64,000 nt of DNA from Gammaproteobacteria bacterium (GTDB taxonomy: Bacteria > Pseudomonadota > Gammaproteobacteria > SZUA-229), in contig JAJDNP010000153.1 of the NCBI GenBank assembly GCA_022340645.1, forward strand, positions 6,422-70,421, given 5' to 3'. The position numbers and the translations under genes are program-made. The notes below the pieces were generated by a model that saw only the letters and a list, made by a program, of their open reading frames with translations, was not told the origin of the DNA and made no database searches. Positions 7,943 to 25,473 of the stretch are shown here, one piece after another (positions within the stretch are counted from its first letter, which is position 1; each line of letters starts with the position of its first letter).

Positions 7943-9235
7943 ATGACAGATAATGCAGTTTTGATGGTCGATGGTCAGACAATTGAATTACCGATCGTCG
8001 AGGGCGCCGAGGGCGAAAGATCAATCGATATAACCGCACTGCGCGCGCAAACCGGGCTGACCAGTTATGATCCCGGCCTGGTAAATACCTCGATATGCAA
8101 AAGTGCCATAACTTATATTGATGGTGATAAAGGCGTTCTTCGATACCGCGGCATACCTGTCGAGCAGTTTACCGTTCAGCCGCAACCCAACTTCGTTGAA
8201 GTTGTCTGGCTGCTGATATTCGGCAACTTGCCGAGCCGGGAGGAACTGAAAATATTTCGTGATATGTTAACGTCCCATGAACTGCTTCATGAAGATGTCA
8301 AGGACCAGTTCCAGCATATCCCGGCAGATGCGCCGCCGATGGCGATATTATCAGCAACGCTTAACCACCTGGCCTGTGTGTATCGAAAATACCTGGTGGT
8401 GGATGATCCTGAGCGGCTGCTCGAGGTTATAGCAAGCCTGATCAGCCAGGTACGCACCATTGCCGCATTTTCATACCGGCGGTCAAAAGGGCTGCCGTTC
8501 ATTTATCCCAATCCGAATCTGCGTTACTGTGCAAACTTCCTGCACATGATGTTTTCATCGCCCTACCAGCAATACATTATTTCCCCGGAGGTAGAGGATG
8601 CCCTGAATCTGATATTTATCCTGCATGCCGATCACGAGCAGAACTGCAGTACCACCACGGTGCGCGCCGTCGGCTCCGCCAGGGCAAACCTGTTTGCTTC
8701 CTGTGCAGCCGGGGTGTCGGCTTTATGGGGGCCATTGCATGGCGGCGCAAACGTGGAAGTCGTGGAGATGCTGGAGCGCATACACAAAGGCGGGCTGTCG
8801 CCTGCGCAATGTATCCGTGATGCCAGGGACAAAAATAATCCGTTCCGCCTTTCCGGTTTTGGTCACCGTATCTACCGCAACTTTGATCCGCGCGCGAAAA
8901 TACTGAAACAGGCCTGCGACAGGGTGCTGCAAATCACCGGGCAGCGAGATCCGCTGCTGGATATCGCCTTTGAACTGGAAGAACTGGCGCTGAATGATGA
9001 CTATTTTATCGAACGCAAGTTATATCCGAACGTGGATTTCTATAGCGGTATCCTGCTGCGTACCATAGGTATACCGACCAACATGTTCACGGTATGTTTT
9101 GCCATCGGTCGGCTGCCTGGCTGGATAGCACACTGGAAGGAACAGAATGAAGAACAGGGCGGGCGAATTATCCGCCCCCGCCAGGTGTATGTGGGGAACA
9201 ATCTAAGCAGCTATGTACCGATGGAAGACAGATAA
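7943..9235 (+). CDS. gltA: Citrate synthase (type II, hexameric Gram-negative type)
   Basis: 430-aa ORF, GAGGG SD; contains catalytic signature GFGHRIYRNFDPRA and conserved HADHEQN / His-His-Asp triad context; N-terminus typical of gltA. Confidence 0.95.
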   Translation: MTDNAVLMVDGQTIELPIVEGAEGERSIDITALRAQTGLTSYDPGLVNTSICKSAITYIDGDKGVLRYRGIPVEQFTVQPQPNFVEVVWLLIFGNLPSREELKIFRDMLTSHELLHEDVKDQFQHIPADAPPMAILSATLNHLACVYRKYLVVDDPERLLEVIASLISQVRTIAAFSYRRSKGLPFIYPNPNLRYCANFLHMMFSSPYQQYIISPEVEDALNLIFILHADHEQNCSTTTVRAVGSARANLFASCAAGVSALWGPLHGGANVEVVEMLERIHKGGLSPAQCIRDARDKNNPFRLSGFGHRIYRNFDPRAKILKQACDRVLQITGQRDPLLDIAFELEELALNDDYFIERKLYPNVDFYSGILLRTIGIPTNMFTVCFAIGRLPGWIAHWKEQNEEQGGRIIRPRQVYVGNNLSSYVPMEDR

Positions 9236-9270
9236 CAGCCTGATCTGTTGCAGTTGTTTTTTCAAAGAAC

Positions 9271-9430
9271 AAACTTTTTATCCGCAAATGAACGCAAATA
9301 AACGCGAATAAAAACTATAGATTGTTAGTAATAGCTAAATCTTTGAGAATTCTCGGTATAACCAGTATTTTGATAAGTTTTAAAATTTTAAGGTTTCTCA
9401 TTAGCGTTTATTTGCGTTCATTTGCCGACC
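9271..9430. mobile_element. Miniature inverted-repeat element copy A (~158 bp, 24-bp terminal inverted repeats CCGCAAATGAACGCAAATAAACGC)
   Basis: Left end 9272-9300 tccgcaaatgaacgcaaataaacgcgaataaaaactatag; right end 9403-9428 gcgtttatttgcgttcatttgccg is its reverse complement; a second copy with the same termini at 24005-24163. Confidence 0.7.
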
Positions 9431-9519
9431 AATAAAGCTTTTCTGTTCGTTTTCCTGCGAATTCCTAACAGGGCGCTTGTTGATGTCTTTGTTTTAACTC
9501 TGGTCCCAAACAAAAAACT

Positions 9520-10443
9520 TCAAAGAAGTTTCACGCAGCTAAGGTTACATTCATTAACTGCGCTGGTGATGATATCAATCACTTTCGGCCGGGTGAAAGA
9601 TACCCGCCACGCCAGGGCCACGGTGCGGCTGGGTATGGGGTTACTGAAGCGGCGAATAGCCAGCAAGCGTTGCGTATAAGAATGCGCCCCCGCGGCAGTG
9701 CAGGGCAGGACTGTTATGCCCAGTCCCGACACCACCATATGCCTTATTGTTTCCAGCGAACTGCCCTCCACGGTATGCGGCAGGTCGCCCTTTAACCCCG
9801 GCTTGGGTACGCAGGCCGGGCAGGCTTCAAGTACATGGTCACGGAAGCAGTGGCCCTTGCCCAGTAACAGCACGTTTTCATTTTCCAGCATACTGGAATT
9901 GATTGTTTTACATACGCAGAGCGGGTGTGATGCCGGCAGCAGAACAACAAATGGCTCCTTGTATAACGGCCTGCAGACGATGCCGTGCTCATCATAAGGC
10001 AGGGCGATGAAGATCAGGTCAAGCTTGCCGCTCTTCAGTTTTTCCGTTAGCACCGAGGTATAGTTTTCTTCAACGATCAGCGGCATTTCCGGAGCGGCGG
10101 AACGTATCAATGGTATGAGTTCCGGATAGAGATAAGGACCGATGGTATGGATCGCTCCAATCTTTAACGGGCCGGACAGCTGGTTTTTCCCCTGCTGTGC
10201 AATCTGCCTGACGCCTTCCGCTGCTTCCAGCGTCTGTTGCGCCTGCTCGACAATGCGCTCACCGATGGGTGACAGGCGTATCTCGTTACTGCCGCGTTCG
10301 AAGATGGCAACACCGAGTTCGTCTTCCAGCTTTTTAATTGCGACGCTTAGCGTCGGCTGGCTGACATTGCAGGCCTGAGCCGCCCTGCCGAAATGGTGCT
10401 CGCGCGCCACGGCGATAATGTAACGTAGTTCAGTCAGGGTCAT
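9520..10443 (-). CDS. oxyR: LysR-family hydrogen peroxide-sensing transcriptional regulator OxyR
   Basis: 307-aa ORF; N-terminal HTH (VSQPTLSVAIKKLEDELGV) and the redox Cys pair in the OxyR-specific context GHCFRDHVLEAC (Cys i / i+9 as C199/C208 of E. coli OxyR) followed by SLETIRHMVVSGLGITVLP. Confidence 0.85.
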   Translation of the reverse strand: MTLTELRYIIAVAREHHFGRAAQACNVSQPTLSVAIKKLEDELGVAIFERGSNEIRLSPIGERIVEQAQQTLEAAEGVRQIAQQGKNQLSGPLKIGAIHTIGPYLYPELIPLIRSAAPEMPLIVEENYTSVLTEKLKSGKLDLIFIALPYDEHGIVCRPLYKEPFVVLLPASHPLCVCKTINSSMLENENVLLLGKGHCFRDHVLEACPACVPKPGLKGDLPHTVEGSSLETIRHMVVSGLGITVLPCTAAGAHSYTQRLLAIRRFSNPIPSRTVALAWRVSFTRPKVIDIITSAVNECNLSCVKLL

Positions 10444-10913: not shown

Positions 10914-11891
10914 ATGCTGGAGGTTAGCCAGATAACAAGAAGCTATGGCAATTTTAAAGCCGTGGATAATGTCAGTTTTTCAATCGGCAAAGGTGAAATC
11001 GTCGGCCTGCTTGGCCACAACGGGGCAGGCAAGACCACGATTCTGAAAATGATCAGCGGTTACCTGGAGCCGGACAATGGTTCAATTCATATTGACGGTA
11101 TCAGCCTGGCGGATGAGCTGAAGCAGGTGCAAACCGGGCTTGGCTACCTGCCCGAAAATCTTCCGGTCTATGCGGAAATGACTGTTGCTGATTACCTTGA
11201 TTATGCCGCAGACCTTAAGGGGCTGCTGGATAAAAATAAAAATGACGAGATTAAACGTGTCATTGCAGCCACCGAACTTTCCGGCAGGCTGCTGGCGCCG
11301 ATAGCAACCCTGTCCCGCGGATACAGGCAGCGTGTCGGTGTTGCACAGGCGATTCTCGGCAAACCCAAACTATTAATACTGGACGAGCCGACCAATGGCC
11401 TCGATCCGGAACAGACGCAGCACATGCGCGATCTTATCCGCGGCATTGCCAGTGATGCGACGGTGATTTTATCCACCCATATTATGCAGGAGGTCGATGC
11501 GCTGTGCTCCCGTGTATTGATGCTGAGTGCTGGCTCACTGGCTGTTGACGCCCGGCTGGAAGCGCTGAGGCACAGCAACCATTTACTGCTGGAAACCTCG
11601 ATGCCGGAAGCAGCGGCCCAGGCTTTAAAAACCATCGAAGCGATAGAAGACATTACCCTGGTTGAAACCATCGCAGGGGATAATGTCTCGTTTAGCTACC
11701 GTATCGAGACGCAATCGCCAGAAGCGCAGAGAAATGCCAGTGCCGAACTGGCGGCGAAAATCATCCAGTCGGGTGAGAAACTCTATCGCCTGTTGCCGGA
11801 GAGAAGAGACCTGGAAACCCTGTTCAGGGAGGTCAATGAACAGCGTTATCGGCAGGATTCTTTGCAGGAGGGCCTGAGCCATGCCGCATGA
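10914..11891 (+). CDS. ABC transporter ATP-binding protein (GldA-like, ABC-2 exporter type)
   Basis: Walker A GHNGAGKTT, signature LSRGYRQRV, Walker B LLILDEPTNGLD; 325 aa with C-terminal extension; 11-nt overlap with downstream permease. Confidence 0.9.
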   Translation: MLEVSQITRSYGNFKAVDNVSFSIGKGEIVGLLGHNGAGKTTILKMISGYLEPDNGSIHIDGISLADELKQVQTGLGYLPENLPVYAEMTVADYLDYAADLKGLLDKNKNDEIKRVIAATELSGRLLAPIATLSRGYRQRVGVAQAILGKPKLLILDEPTNGLDPEQTQHMRDLIRGIASDATVILSTHIMQEVDALCSRVLMLSAGSLAVDARLEALRHSNHLLLETSMPEAAAQALKTIEAIEDITLVETIAGDNVSFSYRIETQSPEAQRNASAELAAKIIQSGEKLYRLLPERRDLETLFREVNEQRYRQDSLQEGLSHAA

Positions 11892-14826
11892 TATTCAGCC
11901 GAAATTAACCATACGACGCATTGCCCTGAAAGAGATAACACTGTTTTTTGCGTCCCCCATTGCCTACCTGTTCCTGGGGACATTTGCAGCGATTACCCTG
12001 TTTGTCTTTTTCTGGGGAGAGTCCTTTTTTGCACGCAACATCGCCGATGTGCGGCCGCTGTTTGAGTGGATGCCGGTGCTGCTGATTTTTCTTAGCGCCA
12101 CCCTGACCATGCGCCTGTGGAGTGAAGAACGCCGCAGCGGCACGCTGGAATACGTGCTCACCCAGGCAGCGCCATTGTGGCATTTTGTTGCAGGTAAATT
12201 CATTGCCTGTCTTTTTCTGCTGGTTGTGGCGCTGATAGTGACGCTGCCATTGCCGGTTACCGTCGCCATTATCGGCAAGCTCGACTGGGGGCCGGTGCTG
12301 GCGGGTTATCTCGCCACGCTGTTGATGGGTGCGGCCTACCTGAGTATCGGTTTATTCGTCTCGGCGCGCAGTGATAACCAGATTATCAGCCTGATTGTCG
12401 CCAGCCTGGTCAGCGGCATGTTTTACCTTGTGGGTACGCCGACCATTACCGACTTCTTTGGCAACCAGGCAGGTGAGTGGCTGCGGCTGCTCGGCATGGG
12501 TTCGCGTTTTGAAGCCATTACCCGCGGTGTGCTGGACCTCAGGGATCTCTATTATTACATCAGCATCGTGCTGGTGTTTCTCTCGTTAAACACGCTGGTG
12601 CTGGAAAAAGAGCGCTGGACAACACATGGCCAGCGTGCGCATCACAAGCAGTGGCAGCTGGTGACCCTGCTGGTTGTGCTGAATGCACTGGTGGCGAATC
12701 TCTGGCTTGGCCAGATGAATAAATTACGGATCGATGTCACCGAGGGTGACCAGTATTCGATTTCGGATGCGACCCGGAGTTACCTGAGCCAGCTGCAGGA
12801 GCCATTATTAATCAGGGGTTATTTCAGCAGCAAGACGCACCCGCTGCTGGCGCCCCTGGTGCCGCAGATGCGCGATCTCATTCGTGAATATGAAATTGCG
12901 GGACAGGGCAGGCTGCGCGTGGAATTTGTCGATCCGACGACCGACCCGGAGGCGGAGAAAGAGGCCAATGAAAAATACGCCATCCAGCCGGTGCCTTTCC
13001 AGGTGGCCGACCGTTACCAGGCGTCCATCGTCAGCTCCTACTTTAATGTGCTGGTGCAGTACGGCGATGAATACCAGGTGCTGGGCTTTCGCGACCTGAT
13101 TGAAATCAAGGCGCGCAGTGAAACCGATATCGATGTGCAGTTGCGTAACCCTGAATATGACCTGACGCGCGCCATTAAAAAGGTGATCAACAGTTACCAG
13201 GCGGGCGGCAACCTGTTTGATACCGTGAAGGGGAAACTGGCATTCAACGGCTACTTCTCGGCGAATGACCGCTTGCCGGAAAAGCTGGCGGATTTTAAAC
13301 AGGACGTGCAGGGTGTGTTGAATGAATTCAAGACGCAGGCGGCGGGCCGGCTGTCGGTCAATATTGTTGATCCCGACGCGGACAACGGCAAGGTGGCACA
13401 GCAGATCAACGAGGATTACGGCTTCAAGCCCATGACCACCAACCTTCTAAGCGATGAAAAGTTTTACTTTTACATGACGCTGAGCAATGGCGATAATATC
13501 GTGCAGATCCCGTTTGGTGATATTTCAAAGGAGGAGTTCAGGCGAAATCTTGAAGCGGGCATCAAGCGCTTTGCCAGCGGTTTTACCAAAACGGTGGCGC
13601 TGGTAACGCCGAAAATCGATTATTCTGCCGGTAGGTACGGCCAAAGCGGCCCACGCTTTTCACAGCTGGAAACTTTTCTGGGCACCGACCTCAATGTCAA
13701 CCGGGAAGACTTGAGCGATGGTTCTGTCGCCGGTGATGCCGATGTACTGCTGCTGGCGGCGCCGAAAGACCTGGATGAAAAACAGCTGTTCGCGGTGGAC
13801 CAGTTTCTGATGCAGGGTGGCACGGTGATTGTTGCCAGCTCGCCCTACAGCGCCAGCCTGACCAACAGCAGTTTAACGGTACAGAAAAACCACAGCGGAC
13901 TGGAAAGCTGGCTGCAGCATAATGGCCTGGCTATCGAGGACAAACTGGTGCTTGATCCGCAGAACGCATCCTACCCGGTGCCGGTGGCACGTAATATCGG
14001 CGGCTTCCAGTTCCAGGAACTGCGCATGCTGGACTACCCTTATTTTGTTGATGTCCGGGACGATGGCTTGAATCAGGACAGCCTGATCACCTCTGAACTG
14101 CCGCAGGTGACCCTGGCCTGGGCATCACCCATCGATATCGATAAGGGAAAACAGGGCCAGCGCACCATCACCAGGCTGTTGAGCAGCAGTGACAAGGCCT
14201 GGCTGTCTTCCTCGCTGGATGTCATGCCAAAAGTGACCCGCCAGGGAATCAGCGCCTTTGTGCCGCAGGGCAGGCAGGCGGCACGCCTGCTAGGCGTTGT
14301 CAGCCAGGGCCGCTTCGATTCGTATTTCGCGGGCAAGGCCTCGCCGCTGATTGAAGAGGACAGGCCGGGCACAGCGAAAGACGATACAGAAAAAGACAGC
14401 ACAGGGAAAGACGATAGCGGGCAGAAAAAATCTGCACAGAAAACGACCGACAGTGCGTCGCTGCAGCTCGGCCGTGTTATCGCACGCTCCCCGGAGTCGT
14501 CCCGCATTATTCTGTTCAGCTCGAATGATTTTCTGCGCGACCAGGTTATCCAGCTCGCGGGCAGCGCCCAGCAGACGAAATACCTGAACACCCTGCAGCT
14601 GCTGGCCAACACGGTGGACTGGTCGCTGGAAGATGCCGGACTGCTGAGTATTCGTTCGCGGGGGCACTTCAACCGTACGCTGCCGCCAATGGAGCAGAGC
14701 ACCCGGATGTTCTGGGAGTATCTCAATTACGGCCTGGCGGCTTTCGCCCTGCTAATCATCGCGCTGCTGGAGCGCCGCATCCGACGTATGCGTCAACAGC
14801 GCTATGTTGAACTTCTGGCCAGCTAA
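11881..14826 (+). CDS. Fused ABC-2 type permease (GldF-like, N-terminal 6 TM) and GldG-like ABC-transport auxiliary domain
   Basis: 981-aa ORF: N-terminal ~240 aa polytopic ABC-2 permease, then large periplasmic GldG-like region, C-terminal TM anchor (LNYGLAAFALLIIALL); genomic linkage with ABC ATPase and DUF4340. Confidence 0.75.
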   Translation: MPHDIQPKLTIRRIALKEITLFFASPIAYLFLGTFAAITLFVFFWGESFFARNIADVRPLFEWMPVLLIFLSATLTMRLWSEERRSGTLEYVLTQAAPLWHFVAGKFIACLFLLVVALIVTLPLPVTVAIIGKLDWGPVLAGYLATLLMGAAYLSIGLFVSARSDNQIISLIVASLVSGMFYLVGTPTITDFFGNQAGEWLRLLGMGSRFEAITRGVLDLRDLYYYISIVLVFLSLNTLVLEKERWTTHGQRAHHKQWQLVTLLVVLNALVANLWLGQMNKLRIDVTEGDQYSISDATRSYLSQLQEPLLIRGYFSSKTHPLLAPLVPQMRDLIREYEIAGQGRLRVEFVDPTTDPEAEKEANEKYAIQPVPFQVADRYQASIVSSYFNVLVQYGDEYQVLGFRDLIEIKARSETDIDVQLRNPEYDLTRAIKKVINSYQAGGNLFDTVKGKLAFNGYFSANDRLPEKLADFKQDVQGVLNEFKTQAAGRLSVNIVDPDADNGKVAQQINEDYGFKPMTTNLLSDEKFYFYMTLSNGDNIVQIPFGDISKEEFRRNLEAGIKRFASGFTKTVALVTPKIDYSAGRYGQSGPRFSQLETFLGTDLNVNREDLSDGSVAGDADVLLLAAPKDLDEKQLFAVDQFLMQGGTVIVASSPYSASLTNSSLTVQKNHSGLESWLQHNGLAIEDKLVLDPQNASYPVPVARNIGGFQFQELRMLDYPYFVDVRDDGLNQDSLITSELPQVTLAWASPIDIDKGKQGQRTITRLLSSSDKAWLSSSLDVMPKVTRQGISAFVPQGRQAARLLGVVSQGRFDSYFAGKASPLIEEDRPGTAKDDTEKDSTGKDDSGQKKSAQKTTDSASLQLGRVIARSPESSRIILFSSNDFLRDQVIQLAGSAQQTKYLNTLQLLANTVDWSLEDAGLLSIRSRGHFNRTLPPMEQSTRMFWEYLNYGLAAFALLIIALLERRIRRMRQQRYVELLAS

Positions 14827-21872: not shown

Positions 21873-23645
21873 ATGAAAAAAATATCTGTTATAAGCATCA
21901 GCCTGGTGGTCTTCGCCTGTATTGCCTGTGATAAAACCCAGCAGGCTACGCAGGACAAACCCGTTTCAACAAAGCCGTTGCAGGCGGCTGAGCAGGCTAT
22001 GCCCGAGATCCGGTTTGAAGAGATATCCGCCAAAGCAGGCATTGATTTTATCTATGAAGACGGTGCGCAGGGTGACAAGTGGGCGCCCGAGACCATGATC
22101 GGCGGCGTGGCGTTTGTCGATTACGATAACGATGGTGACCCGGACCTGCTGGCGGTGTCAGGCACCAGCTGGCAGCATTATGAAGATAACAGCGGTCCGG
22201 TGACGGTGGCGCTTTTTCGAAACGATGGCGGCGGTGGATTTACCAATGTTAGCACTGAAGTGGGACTGGACTTTAACGGTTATGGTTTCGGTTTTGCCAT
22301 CGGTGATATTGACGATGATGGCTGGCAGGATATCTATATAACCGCGCTGGGAGAGAACCGGCTCTACAGGAATAATAAAGGTATTTCATTCACGGATGTT
22401 ACCCGTGAATATCATGTTGCCGGTGAAAAGCAGGGCTATAGCACCAGCGCGGCATTTTTTGATGCTGATAATGACGGTGACCTTGATCTGTATGTTGCCA
22501 ACTATGTCCGCTGGAACAAAGAAATCGATTCCCGGACAAATGATAATGTTATCGGCCTGGCGAAAGCTTACAGCGGACCAAAGGTATTCGAGGGAGTGCA
22601 GCCCTATTTTTTCAGGAACGATGGCGCATCAGGTTTCAGGGAGGAAGCAAAGGCATCGGGCCTGAATGTCAACACCCATGGTGCAAAATCGCTGGGCAGG
22701 GCGCTGGGCAAAACGCTGGGTATATTACCGATCGATCTAAACAGTGATGGCTATATCGATCTGATCGCGGCAAATGACATGGTGCGGAACATTGCATTCA
22801 TTAATGACGGTAAGGGCGGGTTTGTCGAGCAGGGAGAAGAGATCGGACTTGCCTATAATAATTTCGGCACGGCGACTGCGGCGATGGGTATCGATGCTGC
22901 CTGGCTGACGGATGATCTAACGCTGACCATCGCCATGGGAAATTATGCCTCTGAAATGACGTCTATCTATCGCCTCGATGCACAGCATTTCGTGTTCTCG
23001 GATGACGCCCCGCTAACCGGTATCGGGCCGAAATCCCGTAATGCACTGACTTTCGGTGTTCTGTTTATTGATCTTGACCTGGATGGACGCATGGACATGG
23101 TGCAGGCCAATGGTCATGTCGAGCCGGATATAGCGCTGGAGCAGGAATCACAGTCATACAGACAGCCGGCACAGATATTCTGGAATTGTGGACCAGGATG
23201 CGCCAGGCCGTTCGTACTTATGCCTTTGCCATTAATCGGCGACCTGGCTCAACCAATGGTTGGACGGGGCCTTGCGGCAGCGGATATAGATAATGATGGT
23301 GATATCGACCTTGCAATCTCTGAAATCGCTGGCAGGCTCCGCCTGTTTGAAAATAAACAGCAGGCAGCAAATAACTGGCTCAAACTCAGACTTGCGCAAG
23401 CGGATAAAAACAAATTTGCTATCGGCGCCATGGTCGAAATCCATTATGATGACCATGTTCAAAAACAGCAGCTCATGCCCGCAAGAAGTTATGTTTCCCA
23501 GGTGGAAAACATACTTACCTTCGGTCTGGGAAAATCGAACCGTGTTGATACGATTAAAATTACCTGGCCGGACGGACAGCAGCAGATAATAAACGATGTC
23601 GCGGCTAACCAGCTGTTGAAGCAGGTCAAACAAAATAACAACTGA
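21873..23645 (+). CDS. CRTAC1-family lipoprotein (FG-GAP/VCBS repeats + ASPIC/UnbV C-terminal domain)
   Basis: 590 aa; lipoprotein signal MKKISVISISLVVFACIAC; repeated Ca-binding FG-GAP motifs DYDNDGDPDLL, IDDDGWQDIY, DADNDGDLDLY, DIDNDGDIDLA; C-terminal UnbV/ASPIC-like region; 23-nt gap to upstream cytochrome gene suggests co-transcription. Confidence 0.75.
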   Translation: MKKISVISISLVVFACIACDKTQQATQDKPVSTKPLQAAEQAMPEIRFEEISAKAGIDFIYEDGAQGDKWAPETMIGGVAFVDYDNDGDPDLLAVSGTSWQHYEDNSGPVTVALFRNDGGGGFTNVSTEVGLDFNGYGFGFAIGDIDDDGWQDIYITALGENRLYRNNKGISFTDVTREYHVAGEKQGYSTSAAFFDADNDGDLDLYVANYVRWNKEIDSRTNDNVIGLAKAYSGPKVFEGVQPYFFRNDGASGFREEAKASGLNVNTHGAKSLGRALGKTLGILPIDLNSDGYIDLIAANDMVRNIAFINDGKGGFVEQGEEIGLAYNNFGTATAAMGIDAAWLTDDLTLTIAMGNYASEMTSIYRLDAQHFVFSDDAPLTGIGPKSRNALTFGVLFIDLDLDGRMDMVQANGHVEPDIALEQESQSYRQPAQIFWNCGPGCARPFVLMPLPLIGDLAQPMVGRGLAAADIDNDGDIDLAISEIAGRLRLFENKQQAANNWLKLRLAQADKNKFAIGAMVEIHYDDHVQKQQLMPARSYVSQVENILTFGLGKSNRVDTIKITWPDGQQQIINDVAANQLLKQVKQNNN

Positions 23646-23866
23646 AGCGGGCGCCGAGGCTGCCGCATGCACGATTGTCCTGTTTTATGAATAACATCCA
23701 TGTTATTCCTCCTGCGGTGTATCTCATCATTGCAGAACCCGCACTTCGCGGGGAATGAGGCGCTCGCCCACGCTGAAAAACACGCGTGCTCAGACAGTTT
23801 TCACAGAAAGCCCATGATAACGGCACAGCCTCAATGGCTTGTTTAAGGTGGATGTAACGTCAAAAG

Positions 23867-23917
23867 CAAAAACAAAAACAAAAACAAAAACAAAAACAAA
23901 AACAAAAACAAAAACAA
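23867..23917. repeat. Hexanucleotide microsatellite (CAAAAA) x ~8.5
   Basis: Perfect tandem copies read directly in the intergenic region downstream of the CRTAC1 gene. Confidence 0.95.
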
Positions 23918-24004
23918 GCCTAAAACCTGTAAGCTCACCTTCATTAAGTTATGCTGTCAGAGAAAAATCGGCCATGTGCAGACTGCCATGAAAAACTATT
24001 TTTA

Positions 24005-24163
24005 CCGCAAATGAACGTAAATACACGCAAATAAAAAACTATTTAAGTCCATAGATAAAAACGTTCTCAGGCTTATAAATATCTGTATTCATCTGCGTTT
24101 ATCTGTGGATAATCTACTTTTTGCTTTTAAATATTTGTGTGTATTTGCGTTCATTTGCGGAAG
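24005..24163. mobile_element. Miniature inverted-repeat element copy B (~158 bp) related to copy at 9271-9430
   Basis: Left end accgcaaatgaacgtaaatacacgcaaataaaaaactatttaag; right end gtgtgtatttgcgttcatttgcggaag is the reverse complement (CCGCAAATGAACGCAAATACACAC); same termini and AAAAACTAT internal motif as copy A. Confidence 0.7.
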
Positions 24164-24471
24164 AATCTAAAAGTTTTTTCTTTTTCATCAACGGGCATTC
24201 AGGGTCGGTTCTTTACCTTCGGAAGTATTTTTCGTGAGTCCGTTAACAAAAACACACTGTATCCTGAATAGCGGGCTCCCATTTATTTACATCAACAGGG
24301 CATGTACGGCCAGGAAAGGACTGCCATACAAATAAAATCCCGCCACGCTGTCTGTCATGCTACCAGGCGGGTCCTGTCCCTGCGCTGCCGGCTGTATATA
24401 TGCCATCGATATGATGGCGTGAAAGAGCAAATGAACCACCGCTTCCGTCAGGCGGCGTTAGTGTCGGGCAA

Positions 24472-25473
24472 TTATCTGTCGATTGATTCGCGGTATTGTA
24501 CCGGCGATTTGCCAGTCCATTTCTTGAACGCCCTGGAAAACGCGCTCTGCTCGGAGAAACCGAGCAGAAAAGCGATTTCGGTCATGCTGGTGCCGGTGTC
24601 CCTGATGTATTGCATTGCCACCATTTTACGTACGCTTTCCAGCACCTGCCGGAACGAAGTGCCCTTGTCTCTAAGCTTGCGCTGCAGGGTGCGTTCACTG
24701 AGGTGGAGTTCCCGCGCTATCATCTGGTCGGTGACCTTGCCGGAAGGCAGTTGATCGATCATTAGCGACTGGATCTGTTGTACCAGGTCACCCTTCTTTA
24801 TCCTGACCAGGTACTTCATCAATATCTCGTCATGCATCAGCGCGAGTTCCTTGTTCGCGGTCGGTAATTTCCTGTCGATATCGCCAGTGGCAAATGTCAT
24901 GCTGTACTCGCTGGCTTCGTAGACCAGCGGTGACTGGAAGTAACTGGAGAACACCTCGTGGCAGTCGGGCATGGCGTGCTGAAAGGTGATCTCAACCGCC
25001 TTCAGTTCATCGCCAAAGTTTATCCGGCTGATACGCATCAGCACTGCCATCGTAACCTGATACTGTTGTGGGTATGACATTGCCTCATCGGGTATCTTCA
25101 CTGTTACTTTCAGTCCGCGGCCCGTATCTGACAGGCAAAGATCAAGACCTTCCGACACAACATGAACAAAACGCTCGGCCCTGCCGAACGCTGTTCTCAG
25201 GCTGGTGCTGACCAGCCAGGCATAGCCCAGTGCGCCCATGAAGGACGGATGCCAGTAATGCGCCATTTTTATACCAAAACACGGATCGCCAAGCGCTTCA
25301 ACAGCATGGCCCCACAGACTGGTAAGTGCATCAAGACTGATGCGTGCCCTGGGGTTGCCTCTTAATTCCGGTGATATGCCTGCTTTAATGAACAGCTGTG
25401 CCGGGTCACACCCGTTTTCCTCAAGATGTTCCCATAGCATGTTTGTTGCCGGTGCGAAATGTGTGAGTGCCAT
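24472..25473 (-). CDS. AraC-family transcriptional regulator (N-terminal AraC-type ligand-binding domain, C-terminal dual HTH)
   Basis: 333-aa ORF; C-terminal ...ARELHLSERTLQRKLRDKGTSFRQVLESVRKMVAMQYIRDTGTSMTEIAFLLGFSEQSAFSRAFKKWTGKSPVQYRE is a canonical AraC HTH pair. Confidence 0.85.
   Translation of the reverse strand: MALTHFAPATNMLWEHLEENGCDPAQLFIKAGISPELRGNPRARISLDALTSLWGHAVEALGDPCFGIKMAHYWHPSFMGALGYAWLVSTSLRTAFGRAERFVHVVSEGLDLCLSDTGRGLKVTVKIPDEAMSYPQQYQVTMAVLMRISRINFGDELKAVEITFQHAMPDCHEVFSSYFQSPLVYEASEYSMTFATGDIDRKLPTANKELALMHDEILMKYLVRIKKGDLVQQIQSLMIDQLPSGKVTDQMIARELHLSERTLQRKLRDKGTSFRQVLESVRKMVAMQYIRDTGTSMTEIAFLLGFSEQSAFSRAFKKWTGKSPVQYRESIDR

Follow-up and report, generated by a model that had tools for sequence, protein, structure and literature searches.

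Two short inverted-repeat elements, hereafter copies A and B, were identified in a 64,000-nucleotide stretch of DNA from a gammaproteobacterium of the SZUA-229 lineage (assembly GCA_022340645.1, contig JAJDNP010000153.1, positions 6,422 to 70,421; this whole stretch is referred to as the window). Copy A covers positions 9282-9427 (146 bp) and copy B positions 24005-24160 (156 bp), and neither carries an open reading frame (ORF). With a probability of roughly 0.6, both are gene-less, presumably non-autonomous members of a cross-phylum family of palindromic elements, of which the full-length form carries a GxxExxY nuclease. The ends of the window elements are shared with GxxExxY-carrying units, and such ends systematically enclose this gene throughout its family. 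The proposed full-length form is a unit of ~480 bp, in which the same arms surround one ~125-aa GxxExxY nuclease gene (TIGR04256 / PF13366). The gene-less form is far more numerous, lacks target-site duplication (TSD), prefers the 3' sides of genes, and was independently inserted in related operons.

The arms of copies A and B are 28 nt long and consist of three tandem 10-nt units, (CGCAAATnAA)x3, and all four arms fit the 28-nt family consensus CCGCAAATGAACGCAAATAAACGCAAAT at 26-27 of the 28 positions; a period of 10 was detected by Tandem Repeats Finder in the left arm of copy B. The inverted repeat reaches 34 nt with 88% complementarity in both copies (9281-9314 with 9395-9428 in copy A, and 24000-24033 with 24132-24165 in copy B), in good agreement with the initial annotation, made from the sequence alone, that had recorded two copies with terminal inverted repeats at these places. 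The 10-nt tandem units of the arms, a second element nested within copy B, and the GxxExxY gene between identical arms elsewhere had escaped that annotation. Allowing up to 3 mismatches, the window contains 5 occurrences of the 19-mer terminus, where shuffled sequence gives an expectation of 0.01, and a search across the 64 kb for a third copy of the element gave none beyond A and B.

After scanning of a species-representative genome collection with GCAAATGAACGYAAATA, the arm was found in at least 116 loci (designated below by L numbers), and all the family counts given here refer to the matches thus listed. The arms are arranged mostly as inverted pairs enclosing 20-450 nt of unrelated sequence. 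Most of the listed loci belong to Gammaproteobacteria, including Chromatiaceae, Sedimenticola, Thiodiazotropha and many metagenome-assembled genomes (MAGs), and the other taxon labels are Alpha- and Betaproteobacteria, Methylomirabilota, Planctomycetota, Armatimonadota, Actinomycetota, Thermodesulfobacteriota and Verrucomicrobiota, with GC contents of the loci ranging from 0.36 to 0.70. Alignment of 225 arms indicates conservation over positions 0-27, of which positions 18-27, located outside the search anchor, retain 62-78% conservation. Beyond the arm, the sole signal is weak and A-rich, with an AAAAGC/GAAAG tract, and this GAAA(A)G-type outer flank is family-wide, its inverted-flank signal being weak but present. 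The complete plasmid pTs485 of Thiodictyon syntrophicum carries 30 arm places, and the five full elements mapped on it are all intergenic, in short gaps between co-directional photosynthesis or tetrahydromethanopterin (H4MPT) genes. Among plasmids the family was found on pTs485 only, and among 2.9 million viral contigs the arm was found on only 5, with no convincing phage match. The assignment of A and B to a dispersed, multi-copy family of short non-coding palindromic elements, with no local duplication, is supported.

Identical arms were found to bracket a ~125-aa GxxExxY gene of the PD-(D/E)XK type in three loci, L062, L046 and L134. The arm type around the gene in L134 is exactly that of the window (TGTCCGCAAATGAACGCAAATGAACGCAAAT ... 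gene ... ATTTGCGTTCATTTGCGTTCATTTGCGGACA), and L046 carries, between CAAAT arms, a gene 54% identical to that of L062, together with an adjoining gene-less hairpin. The 127-aa product of the unit in L062 (194-654) was assigned to TIGR04256 'GxxExxY protein' (E = 6e-41) and PF13366 PDDEXK_3 (E = 4e-40), and the initiation codon is the ATG of an arm unit (CCGCAG ATG AAC GCG AAT, encoding MNAN); directly upstream of this unit, a second tandem copy terminates in the same right arm and flank. Units of the CAGAT/CGGAT type surround the gene in L130, in the order GGAAGAAAGGTTT-GACGCAGATGAACACCGATGGACGCAGATGAACACGGAT-gene-CCATCCGTGTTCATCTGCGTCCATCCGTGTTCATCTGCGT-TAAGTCTTTCTTCC, with the inverted outer flank GGAAGAAAG. 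Tandem 10-nt units of the general type C-N-S-N-R-A-T-N-N-N (at least two units, in inverted arms) are present in copies A and B of the window and flank the GxxExxY genes of L134, L136, L138, L046 and L062.

The same arrangement was observed across the gene family. A metagenome collection was scanned with the GxxExxY alignment, giving 80 loci, 73 of which had enough flanking sequence, and for each of these the upstream flank was aligned locally with the reverse-complemented downstream flank and the best alignment taken, with a score of 30 as the cut-off. As many as 55 of the 73 loci scored 30 or higher (median 42), compared with none of 365 shuffles (maximum 26). At least two units were found upstream in the sense orientation in 38 loci and downstream in the antisense orientation in 39, the corresponding numbers for the wrong orientation being 7 and 7. 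The unit cores are CGCAGAT (54), CACAGAT (25), CGCCGAT (21), CACGGAT (14), CGCGGAT (11) and CGCAAAT (8). The gene-carrying units are compact, with a median length of 482 bp, the arms being located ~15 nt before and 8 nt after the gene. Proteins sharing an arm-unit core are 59.8% identical to each other versus 56.0% otherwise (permutation p < 0.001, 42 loci).

Start codons of one clade are situated within an arm unit (MNAN..., MNTD...). The best 120 database homologues of the L062 protein, most homologues of which are on contigs of 1-3 kb, start with MNAN, MNTD, MNTN, MDAN or MNAD, and over-long gene calls among the homologues read FNANKRKWPKMNAN, that is, upstream arm units in frame. Such arm-encoded leaders (MNADERR, MNTDEHG, MNANEA) occur in many diverse 50%-identity cluster representatives, of which the GxxExxY family comprises 25,781 at E <= 1e-3. 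Several representatives of 250-290 aa (P0241, P0245, P0257, P0267 and others) hold two GxxExxY domains in tandem, consistent with gene callers reading through tandem units such as those in L062 1-654.

As to the protein itself, the catalytic residues kept in the alignment are E36, D71, E81 and K83, corresponding to the helix glutamate plus D...E-x-K. The AlphaFold model, a confident one (predicted local distance difference score, pLDDT, 88.3; predicted template-modelling score, pTM, 0.83) adopts a fold that matches Cas4, lambda-type exonucleases and the Hjc resolvase, all of which are PD-(D/E)XK nucleases; a search by sequence for a solved structure gave none. The protein has no entry in PADLOC and is barely present in PHROGs. 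A survey of the superfamily in 2012 listed the function of PDDEXK_3 as 'unknown', with multiple transfers between divisions (PMC3424549). Two further observations concern the loci carrying this gene. A GxxExxY unit with CAAAT arms is located directly upstream of carB (MPKRTDI...) both in L046 (1051-1477) and in L134 (640-1154), from organisms that differ in GC content; either an ancient insertion has been inherited in both, or the site is preferred. In L046 (875-925), a heptamer array, (TTATTGG)n, forms the interior of the gene-less hairpin beside the GxxExxY gene.

The organization of the two window elements is as follows.

9264-9281: outer left flank of copy A, AAAGAACAAACTTTTTAT; weakly complementary to 9428-9449, part of an extended stem or outer inverted repeat.
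9282-9309, plus strand: left arm of copy A, CCGCAAATGAACGCAAATAAACGCGAAT; units CCGCAAATGA, ACGCAAATAA and ACGCGAAT; 27/28 to the consensus.
9310-9399: interior of copy A, 90 nt, GC 0.24, without ORF; opens with AAAAACTAT.
9400-9427, minus strand: right arm of copy A, reverse complement CGGCAAATGAACGCAAATAAACGCTAAT; 26/28 to the consensus.
9428-9449: outer right flank of copy A, ACCAATAAAGCTTTTCTGTTCG; holds the GCTTTT / AAAAGC motif common outside arms.
23990-24004: outer left flank of copy B, GAAAAACTATTTTTA; pairs with 24161-24180.
24005-24032, plus strand: left arm of copy B, CCGCAAATGAACGTAAATACACGCAAAT.
24033-24132: interior of copy B, a nested CAGAT-type element.
24033-24048: outer flank of the nested element, AAAAAACTATTTAAGT.
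24049-24063: decayed left arm of the nested element, CCATAGATAAAAACG.
24081-24108: right arm of the nested element, reverse complement CCACAGATAAACGCAGATGAATACAGAT.
24109-24132: right flank of the nested element.
24133-24160, minus strand: right arm of copy B, reverse complement CCGCAAATGAACGCAAATACACACAAAT.
24161-24208: outer right flank of copy B, of which 24161-24180 (AAGAATCTAAAAGTTTTTTC) pairs with the left flank.

The interiors of A (90 nt, GC 0.24) and B (100 nt, GC 0.27) are AT-rich compared with the window (GC 0.50) and unrelated to each other, their alignment score being within the shuffled range, as the initial annotation had described. The internal motif AAAAACTAT that it listed was located in both copies (9310-9318 in A and 24034-24042 in B), plus in the left flank of B (23992-24000); elsewhere this motif is the outer-flank motif of a nested element, as in B, L010, L094, L045 and L115. 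A/G-rich inverted outer flanks are present on both copies (9264-9281 with 9428-9449 for A, and 23990-24004 with 24161-24180 for B). As single strands the copies fold into long hairpins of -51 kcal/mol (z = -4.9) for A and -66.7 kcal/mol (z = -9.3) for B, bearing out the hairpin formation that had been put forward for checking; the predicted stems are AT-rich and ~30-45 bp long, with loops of 80-100 nt, and in the RNA fold of copy A positions 9267-9277 are paired with 9437-9447.

Both copies are located in gaps between the 3' ends of convergent genes, with flanking genes as first annotated (gltA/oxyR and CRTAC1/AraC). The citrate synthase encoded beside copy A has a 100% match, which places the window in an uncultured gammaproteobacterial MAG. 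The gene for citrate synthase (7943-9235, plus strand) converges on that for an OxyR-like LysR regulator (9520-10443, minus strand) around copy A, and the gene for an FG-GAP/ASPIC (CRTAC1-like) protein (21873-23645, plus strand) converges on that for an AraC-family regulator (24472-25473, minus strand) around copy B. The gltA-LysR synteny is kept in a relative with an 88%-identical gltA, with a gap of 225 bp, and is absent in the more distant relatives examined. The 826-nt convergent gap of copy B (23646-24471) also holds a hexamer array, (CAAAAA)x9.5 with 98% matches, at 23861-23917, ~90 nt upstream of the element. Elsewhere in the window, 10914-14826 encodes a GldA-like ABC ATPase followed by a 981-aa fusion of a GldF-like permease with GldG-like parts, which is below the NCBIfam cut-offs and unusual for a gammaproteobacterial MAG.

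Copy B is a composite, in the loop of which a second family member with the variant unit CAGAT (~24033-24132) is present, homologous to an element of L044 (6829-6930) in which the left arm, CCGCAGATGAACACAGAT, is intact. The inner element, the outer right arm and ~48 nt beyond are together 78% identical to L044 (6829-7010), a locus with unrelated genes. Since this block is shared with a non-homologous locus, the composites appear to travel as units, and because the stretch up to ~24208 is common to both, the true right boundary of B may, judging from this alignment, be near 24208. Elements nested in one another were found in copy B of the window, in L010 (610-753) and in L044. A second conserved module, approximately GCATTCGCACATCCATGTGCATC and itself a small hairpin, abuts arms beginning with ACGC instead of CCGC (L005 1383-1412, L100 4745-4769, L101 90-114, L031 3604-3628, L010 754-778 and L041 ~1255-1280); this could be either another form of the terminal module or a separate repeat with the arms as its target. 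Two loci with widely spaced arms, L071 (3.4 kb) and L077 (3.9 kb), were considered as cargo carriers and rejected, since the ordinary housekeeping genes between the arms indicate two separate arms and not one element.

For the placement of the family, 69 elements were assigned by a crude gene call to 47 co-directional, 19 convergent and 3 divergent gaps, while the 505 element-free gaps of the same loci are 325 co-directional, 78 convergent and 102 divergent. The rarity in divergent gaps indicates avoidance of the promoter side and a preference for gene 3' sides. Orthologous operons are not occupied alike: the nuoE-nuoF gap is 6 nt in L011 and filled with an element in L029, an element follows nuoF in both L011 and L029, and another lies directly after nuoCD in L055, indicating independent insertions over evolutionary time. 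At the variable arm positions (8, 14, 18-20 and 24) resemblance within an element's pair of arms is no greater than between arms taken from different elements, and with respect to RNA-type selection the G:U-compatible and A:C stem mismatches are symmetric on the transcribed strand, with no G:U excess. The lack of both arm covariation and G:U bias indicates that conservation acts on the sequence of each arm and not on pairing.

Conservation of this kind, per arm and with uncorrelated variable positions, would also be expected for protein-binding sites phased by 10 bp, or one helical turn. The elements might accordingly be sites selected by the host, either such phased protein-binding sites or RNA hairpins that terminate or stabilise transcripts or control the nuclease gene by 5'-3' pairing, in which case the nuclease gene would be only a frequent resident and the spread would be due to ordinary recombination or horizontal gene transfer. 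The location downstream of genes and the strongly stable folds fit this explanation, as does the position of the 5' arm in gene-carrying units, where it extends over the start codon, pairing with the 3' arm being feasible. We nevertheless regard it as unlikely, because near-identical 28-mers are spread patchily across phyla over the whole GC range of 0.36-0.70, positions vary within orthologous operons, copies nest and their composites recur at non-homologous loci, and the transcribed strand lacks a G:U-over-A:C bias. Neither an Rfam family nor a terminator-like match was found: no gathering-score match to Rfam was obtained in the window or in 8 related loci, the only matches at the E-value threshold being far sub-threshold ones to long-hairpin microRNA precursors, and a canonical intrinsic terminator was rejected after a simple scan gave no terminator-like site in either gap, the stems being long and AT-rich with large loops; a second role of the elements as terminators, as suggested in the initial annotation, is possible. 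Integron attC sites were likewise rejected, because the arms lack the R''/R' core (GTTRRRY) and the elements of pTs485 are in photosynthesis and H4MPT operons, outside the integrase cassette region. That region, L129 37466-40680 (pTs485 87.5-90.7 kb), holds an annotated integron integrase followed by DUF433 and PIN-like (DUF5615) cassettes, with palindromic elements outside the array.

The initial annotation had suggested an element of the type of MITEs (miniature inverted-repeat transposable elements) or of repetitive extragenic palindromic (REP) units and bacterial interspersed mosaic elements (BIMEs). The dispersed, multi-copy, short and non-coding palindromic nature held, but neither named class did. 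A classical MITE would be a deletion derivative of an insertion sequence (IS), moved in trans by a DDE transposase (for instance IS630/Tc1-like) to which the terminal inverted repeats serve as recognition sites. The presence of such repeats, the small size, the lack of coding content and the many copies per genome all agree with this. So does position -1, just outside CCGC, which is symmetric by subfamily (T/T 45, G/G 16, A/A 13), as expected if one enzyme must fit both ends. The excess complementarity outside CCGC is limited to positions -1 to -4 (0.83-0.85 versus 0.39-0.44 at position -1), and an extended flank complementarity acting as a palindromic target was rejected because of this limit, subfamily-specific termini being sufficient to explain the excess. 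However, the checks for target-site duplication and for a cognate transposase that had been recommended were negative, the latter within the listed loci and the part of pTs485 covered. In 81 pairs there was no excess of direct repeats of 2-9 nt at any symmetric offset of 0-35 nt, and inspection by eye revealed no TSD around the 55 gene-carrying units or around A and B. After all-against-all ORF clustering of the 8-kb loci, no transposase, whether DDE/IS630 or IS200/IS605, was found to recur beside or between the arms among the at least 116 matches listed, where recurrence among the neighbours is limited to histidine kinases, GGDEF/EAL proteins and ABC ATPases. The only gene repeatedly found between arms is the PD-(D/E)XK nuclease, and even copies from a single genome have unrelated interiors. 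In 140 kb of pTs485, no transposase gene is situated beside or between arms, and those annotated there as IS110 and IS91 have none on their flanks. A classical MITE is, with these results, very improbable.

To a similar degree we doubt a system of the REP/BIME type or of REP doublets forming hairpins (REPINs), which would be maintained by a single-copy REP-associated tyrosine transposase (RAYT), an IS200/IS605-like HUH enzyme acting on single-stranded hairpins. The inverted doublets that give long hairpins, the extragenic location mostly after genes, the lack of TSD and the high copy number do resemble the architecture described for these systems (PMC3116915, PMC3337134). The arms, however, are tandem direct 10-nt units without an internal palindrome and without the GTAG/CGTC tag of REP sequences (PMC3733652), and the two arms of one element do not co-vary. 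The same 28-mer is common to several phyla and GC contents, while vertical inheritance and lineage specificity have been described for REPIN-RAYT systems (10.1101/2024.10.14.618302), and no Y1-transposase-like gene recurs near the arms among the at least 116 loci listed. As for a local duplication or chance similarity within the window, the presence of only two copies in 64 kb would be in its favour, but it can practically be dismissed, given the chance expectation of 0.01, the hundreds of arms in unrelated genomes, the strong inverted pairing, and the unrelated interiors and flanks of A and B.

The preferred reading thus remains that A and B are gene-less relatives of the GxxExxY-carrying unit. 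In the mechanism that we propose, the nuclease would recognise or cut the arm arrays, or the cruciform or hairpin formed by the arms, and the element would spread by break-induced, recombination-dependent (homing-like) copying and not by DDE cut-and-paste, which would explain the absence of target-site duplications. Gene-less copies with intact arms would be propagated or maintained in trans by the nuclease, and their loops could hold other cargo or other family members. Because the copies are located just downstream of genes, they probably form long hairpins at mRNA 3' ends, which would be their probable effect on the host. A wider proposal, which we offer as tentative, is that GxxExxY proteins are in general the enzymes of unrecognised, cross-phylum minimal mobile elements, consisting of a nuclease gene between inverted 10-nt arrays, that insert without target duplication and have given rise to abundant gene-less hairpins at gene 3' ends in many phyla.

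Several observations weigh against this reading. By tblastn, neither the 64-kb window nor the 140 kb covered of pTs485 gave a GxxExxY homologue, and A and B were for this reason filed as gene-less derivatives and not as autonomous units. Co-occurrence of arms and a GxxExxY gene in one genome was shown for L046 only, the gene is present in only 2 of the ~100 CAAAT-type elements among the matches listed, and 18 of the 73 GxxExxY loci carry no clear inverted repeat. The gene-less interiors hold no recognisable remnant of the gene, which indicates that they are not simple deletion derivatives. In L090 (3555-4675), two CAAAT-type arms with 9 extra complementary nucleotides outside enclose a pair of genes for TacA (PF08681) and a GNAT toxin (TacT-like); this toxin-antitoxin cargo indicates that the loop can hold genes other than the nuclease, and the nuclease could in principle likewise be a frequent passenger. 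The taxon labels come mostly from MAGs, for which mis-binning is possible. The relation between enzyme and substrate is associative, and the nuclease activity, the arm specificity and the step of transposition or homing are putative.

If the reading is true, a function and a testable substrate would be gained for GxxExxY/PDDEXK_3, a very large protein family whose listed function is still 'unknown'. A nuclease-based type would join the bacterial non-autonomous repeats (MITE with DDE transposase, REPIN with RAYT), and the recurrent 'hypothetical proteins' and assembly breaks at these repeats would be explained. The consequence for the window itself is modest: two selfish hairpin repeats, by which transcript termination or stability may be affected for gltA, oxyR and adjacent genes. 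Full-text literature, with most subscription journals outside its coverage, was found neither to describe these repeats nor to connect them with GxxExxY genes; arm sequences and variants thereof matched unrelated primers only, and on GxxExxY/PF13366 nothing was found beyond 'unknown function' and 'multiple transfers'.

Among known systems, the genes for PD-(D/E)XK homing endonucleases (such as I-Ssp6803I) and other free-standing selfish nuclease genes likewise have a small nuclease gene as the sole coding content, and their spread is expected to proceed via host repair of the nuclease-made break, without TSD. Unlike these, the GxxExxY units are located outside introns and inteins, are flanked by long inverted arrays, and are accompanied by a large excess of gene-less copies at many loci. 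The intervening sequences of rRNA carry a small ORF (S23p / four-helix bundle, TIGR02436) between inverted repeats that form a long stem in the transcript; the protein fold and the repeats differ from those described here, and the elements are located between protein genes, with none seen in rRNA. In Thiomargarita, a MITE linked to a PD-(D/E)XK_2 (YhgA/Rpn-like) 'transposase' has been proposed (PMC4853749), which would also tie a PD-(D/E)XK family to short palindromic repeats in sulfur-oxidising Gammaproteobacteria. The nuclease family is different, however (PF12784/PF04754 there, PF13366 here), the ends of the Thiomargarita MITE carry 10-bp direct repeats, and the CGCAAAT motif is absent from the supplementary sequences of that paper.

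Bacterial MITEs such as Correia, Nezha and MITEAba12 (PMC3184786, PMC6382973) resemble the window family in having terminal inverted repeats, a length of ~100-200 bp, no coding content and a dispersed, intergenic location. The window family differs from them in having no target-site duplication, no parental DDE insertion sequence found and interiors unconserved between copies, and in that the most conserved part of its end is internal, in the repeated units, and not at the tip. With REPINs and the REP-BIME/RAYT systems (PMC3116915, PMC3337134, PMC3733652) it shares the organization as short extragenic inverted doublets that form long hairpins without TSD, in tens to hundreds of copies mostly after genes, and thought to be moved in trans by one dedicated protein. 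It differs in that the arms are tandem direct 10-nt units, REPs being small palindromes with the GTAG/CGTC tag, in being common to several phyla, and in that the associated PD-(D/E)XK nuclease gene is inside the element, whereas in REPIN systems an HUH tyrosine transposase has REPs on both sides. The chance of the gene-carrying unit being a new class of mobile element is substantial. The window elements, as a non-autonomous palindromic repeat with a dedicated protein, belong to an already known type of system, in which both the enzyme and the type of repeat differ from those hitherto described.

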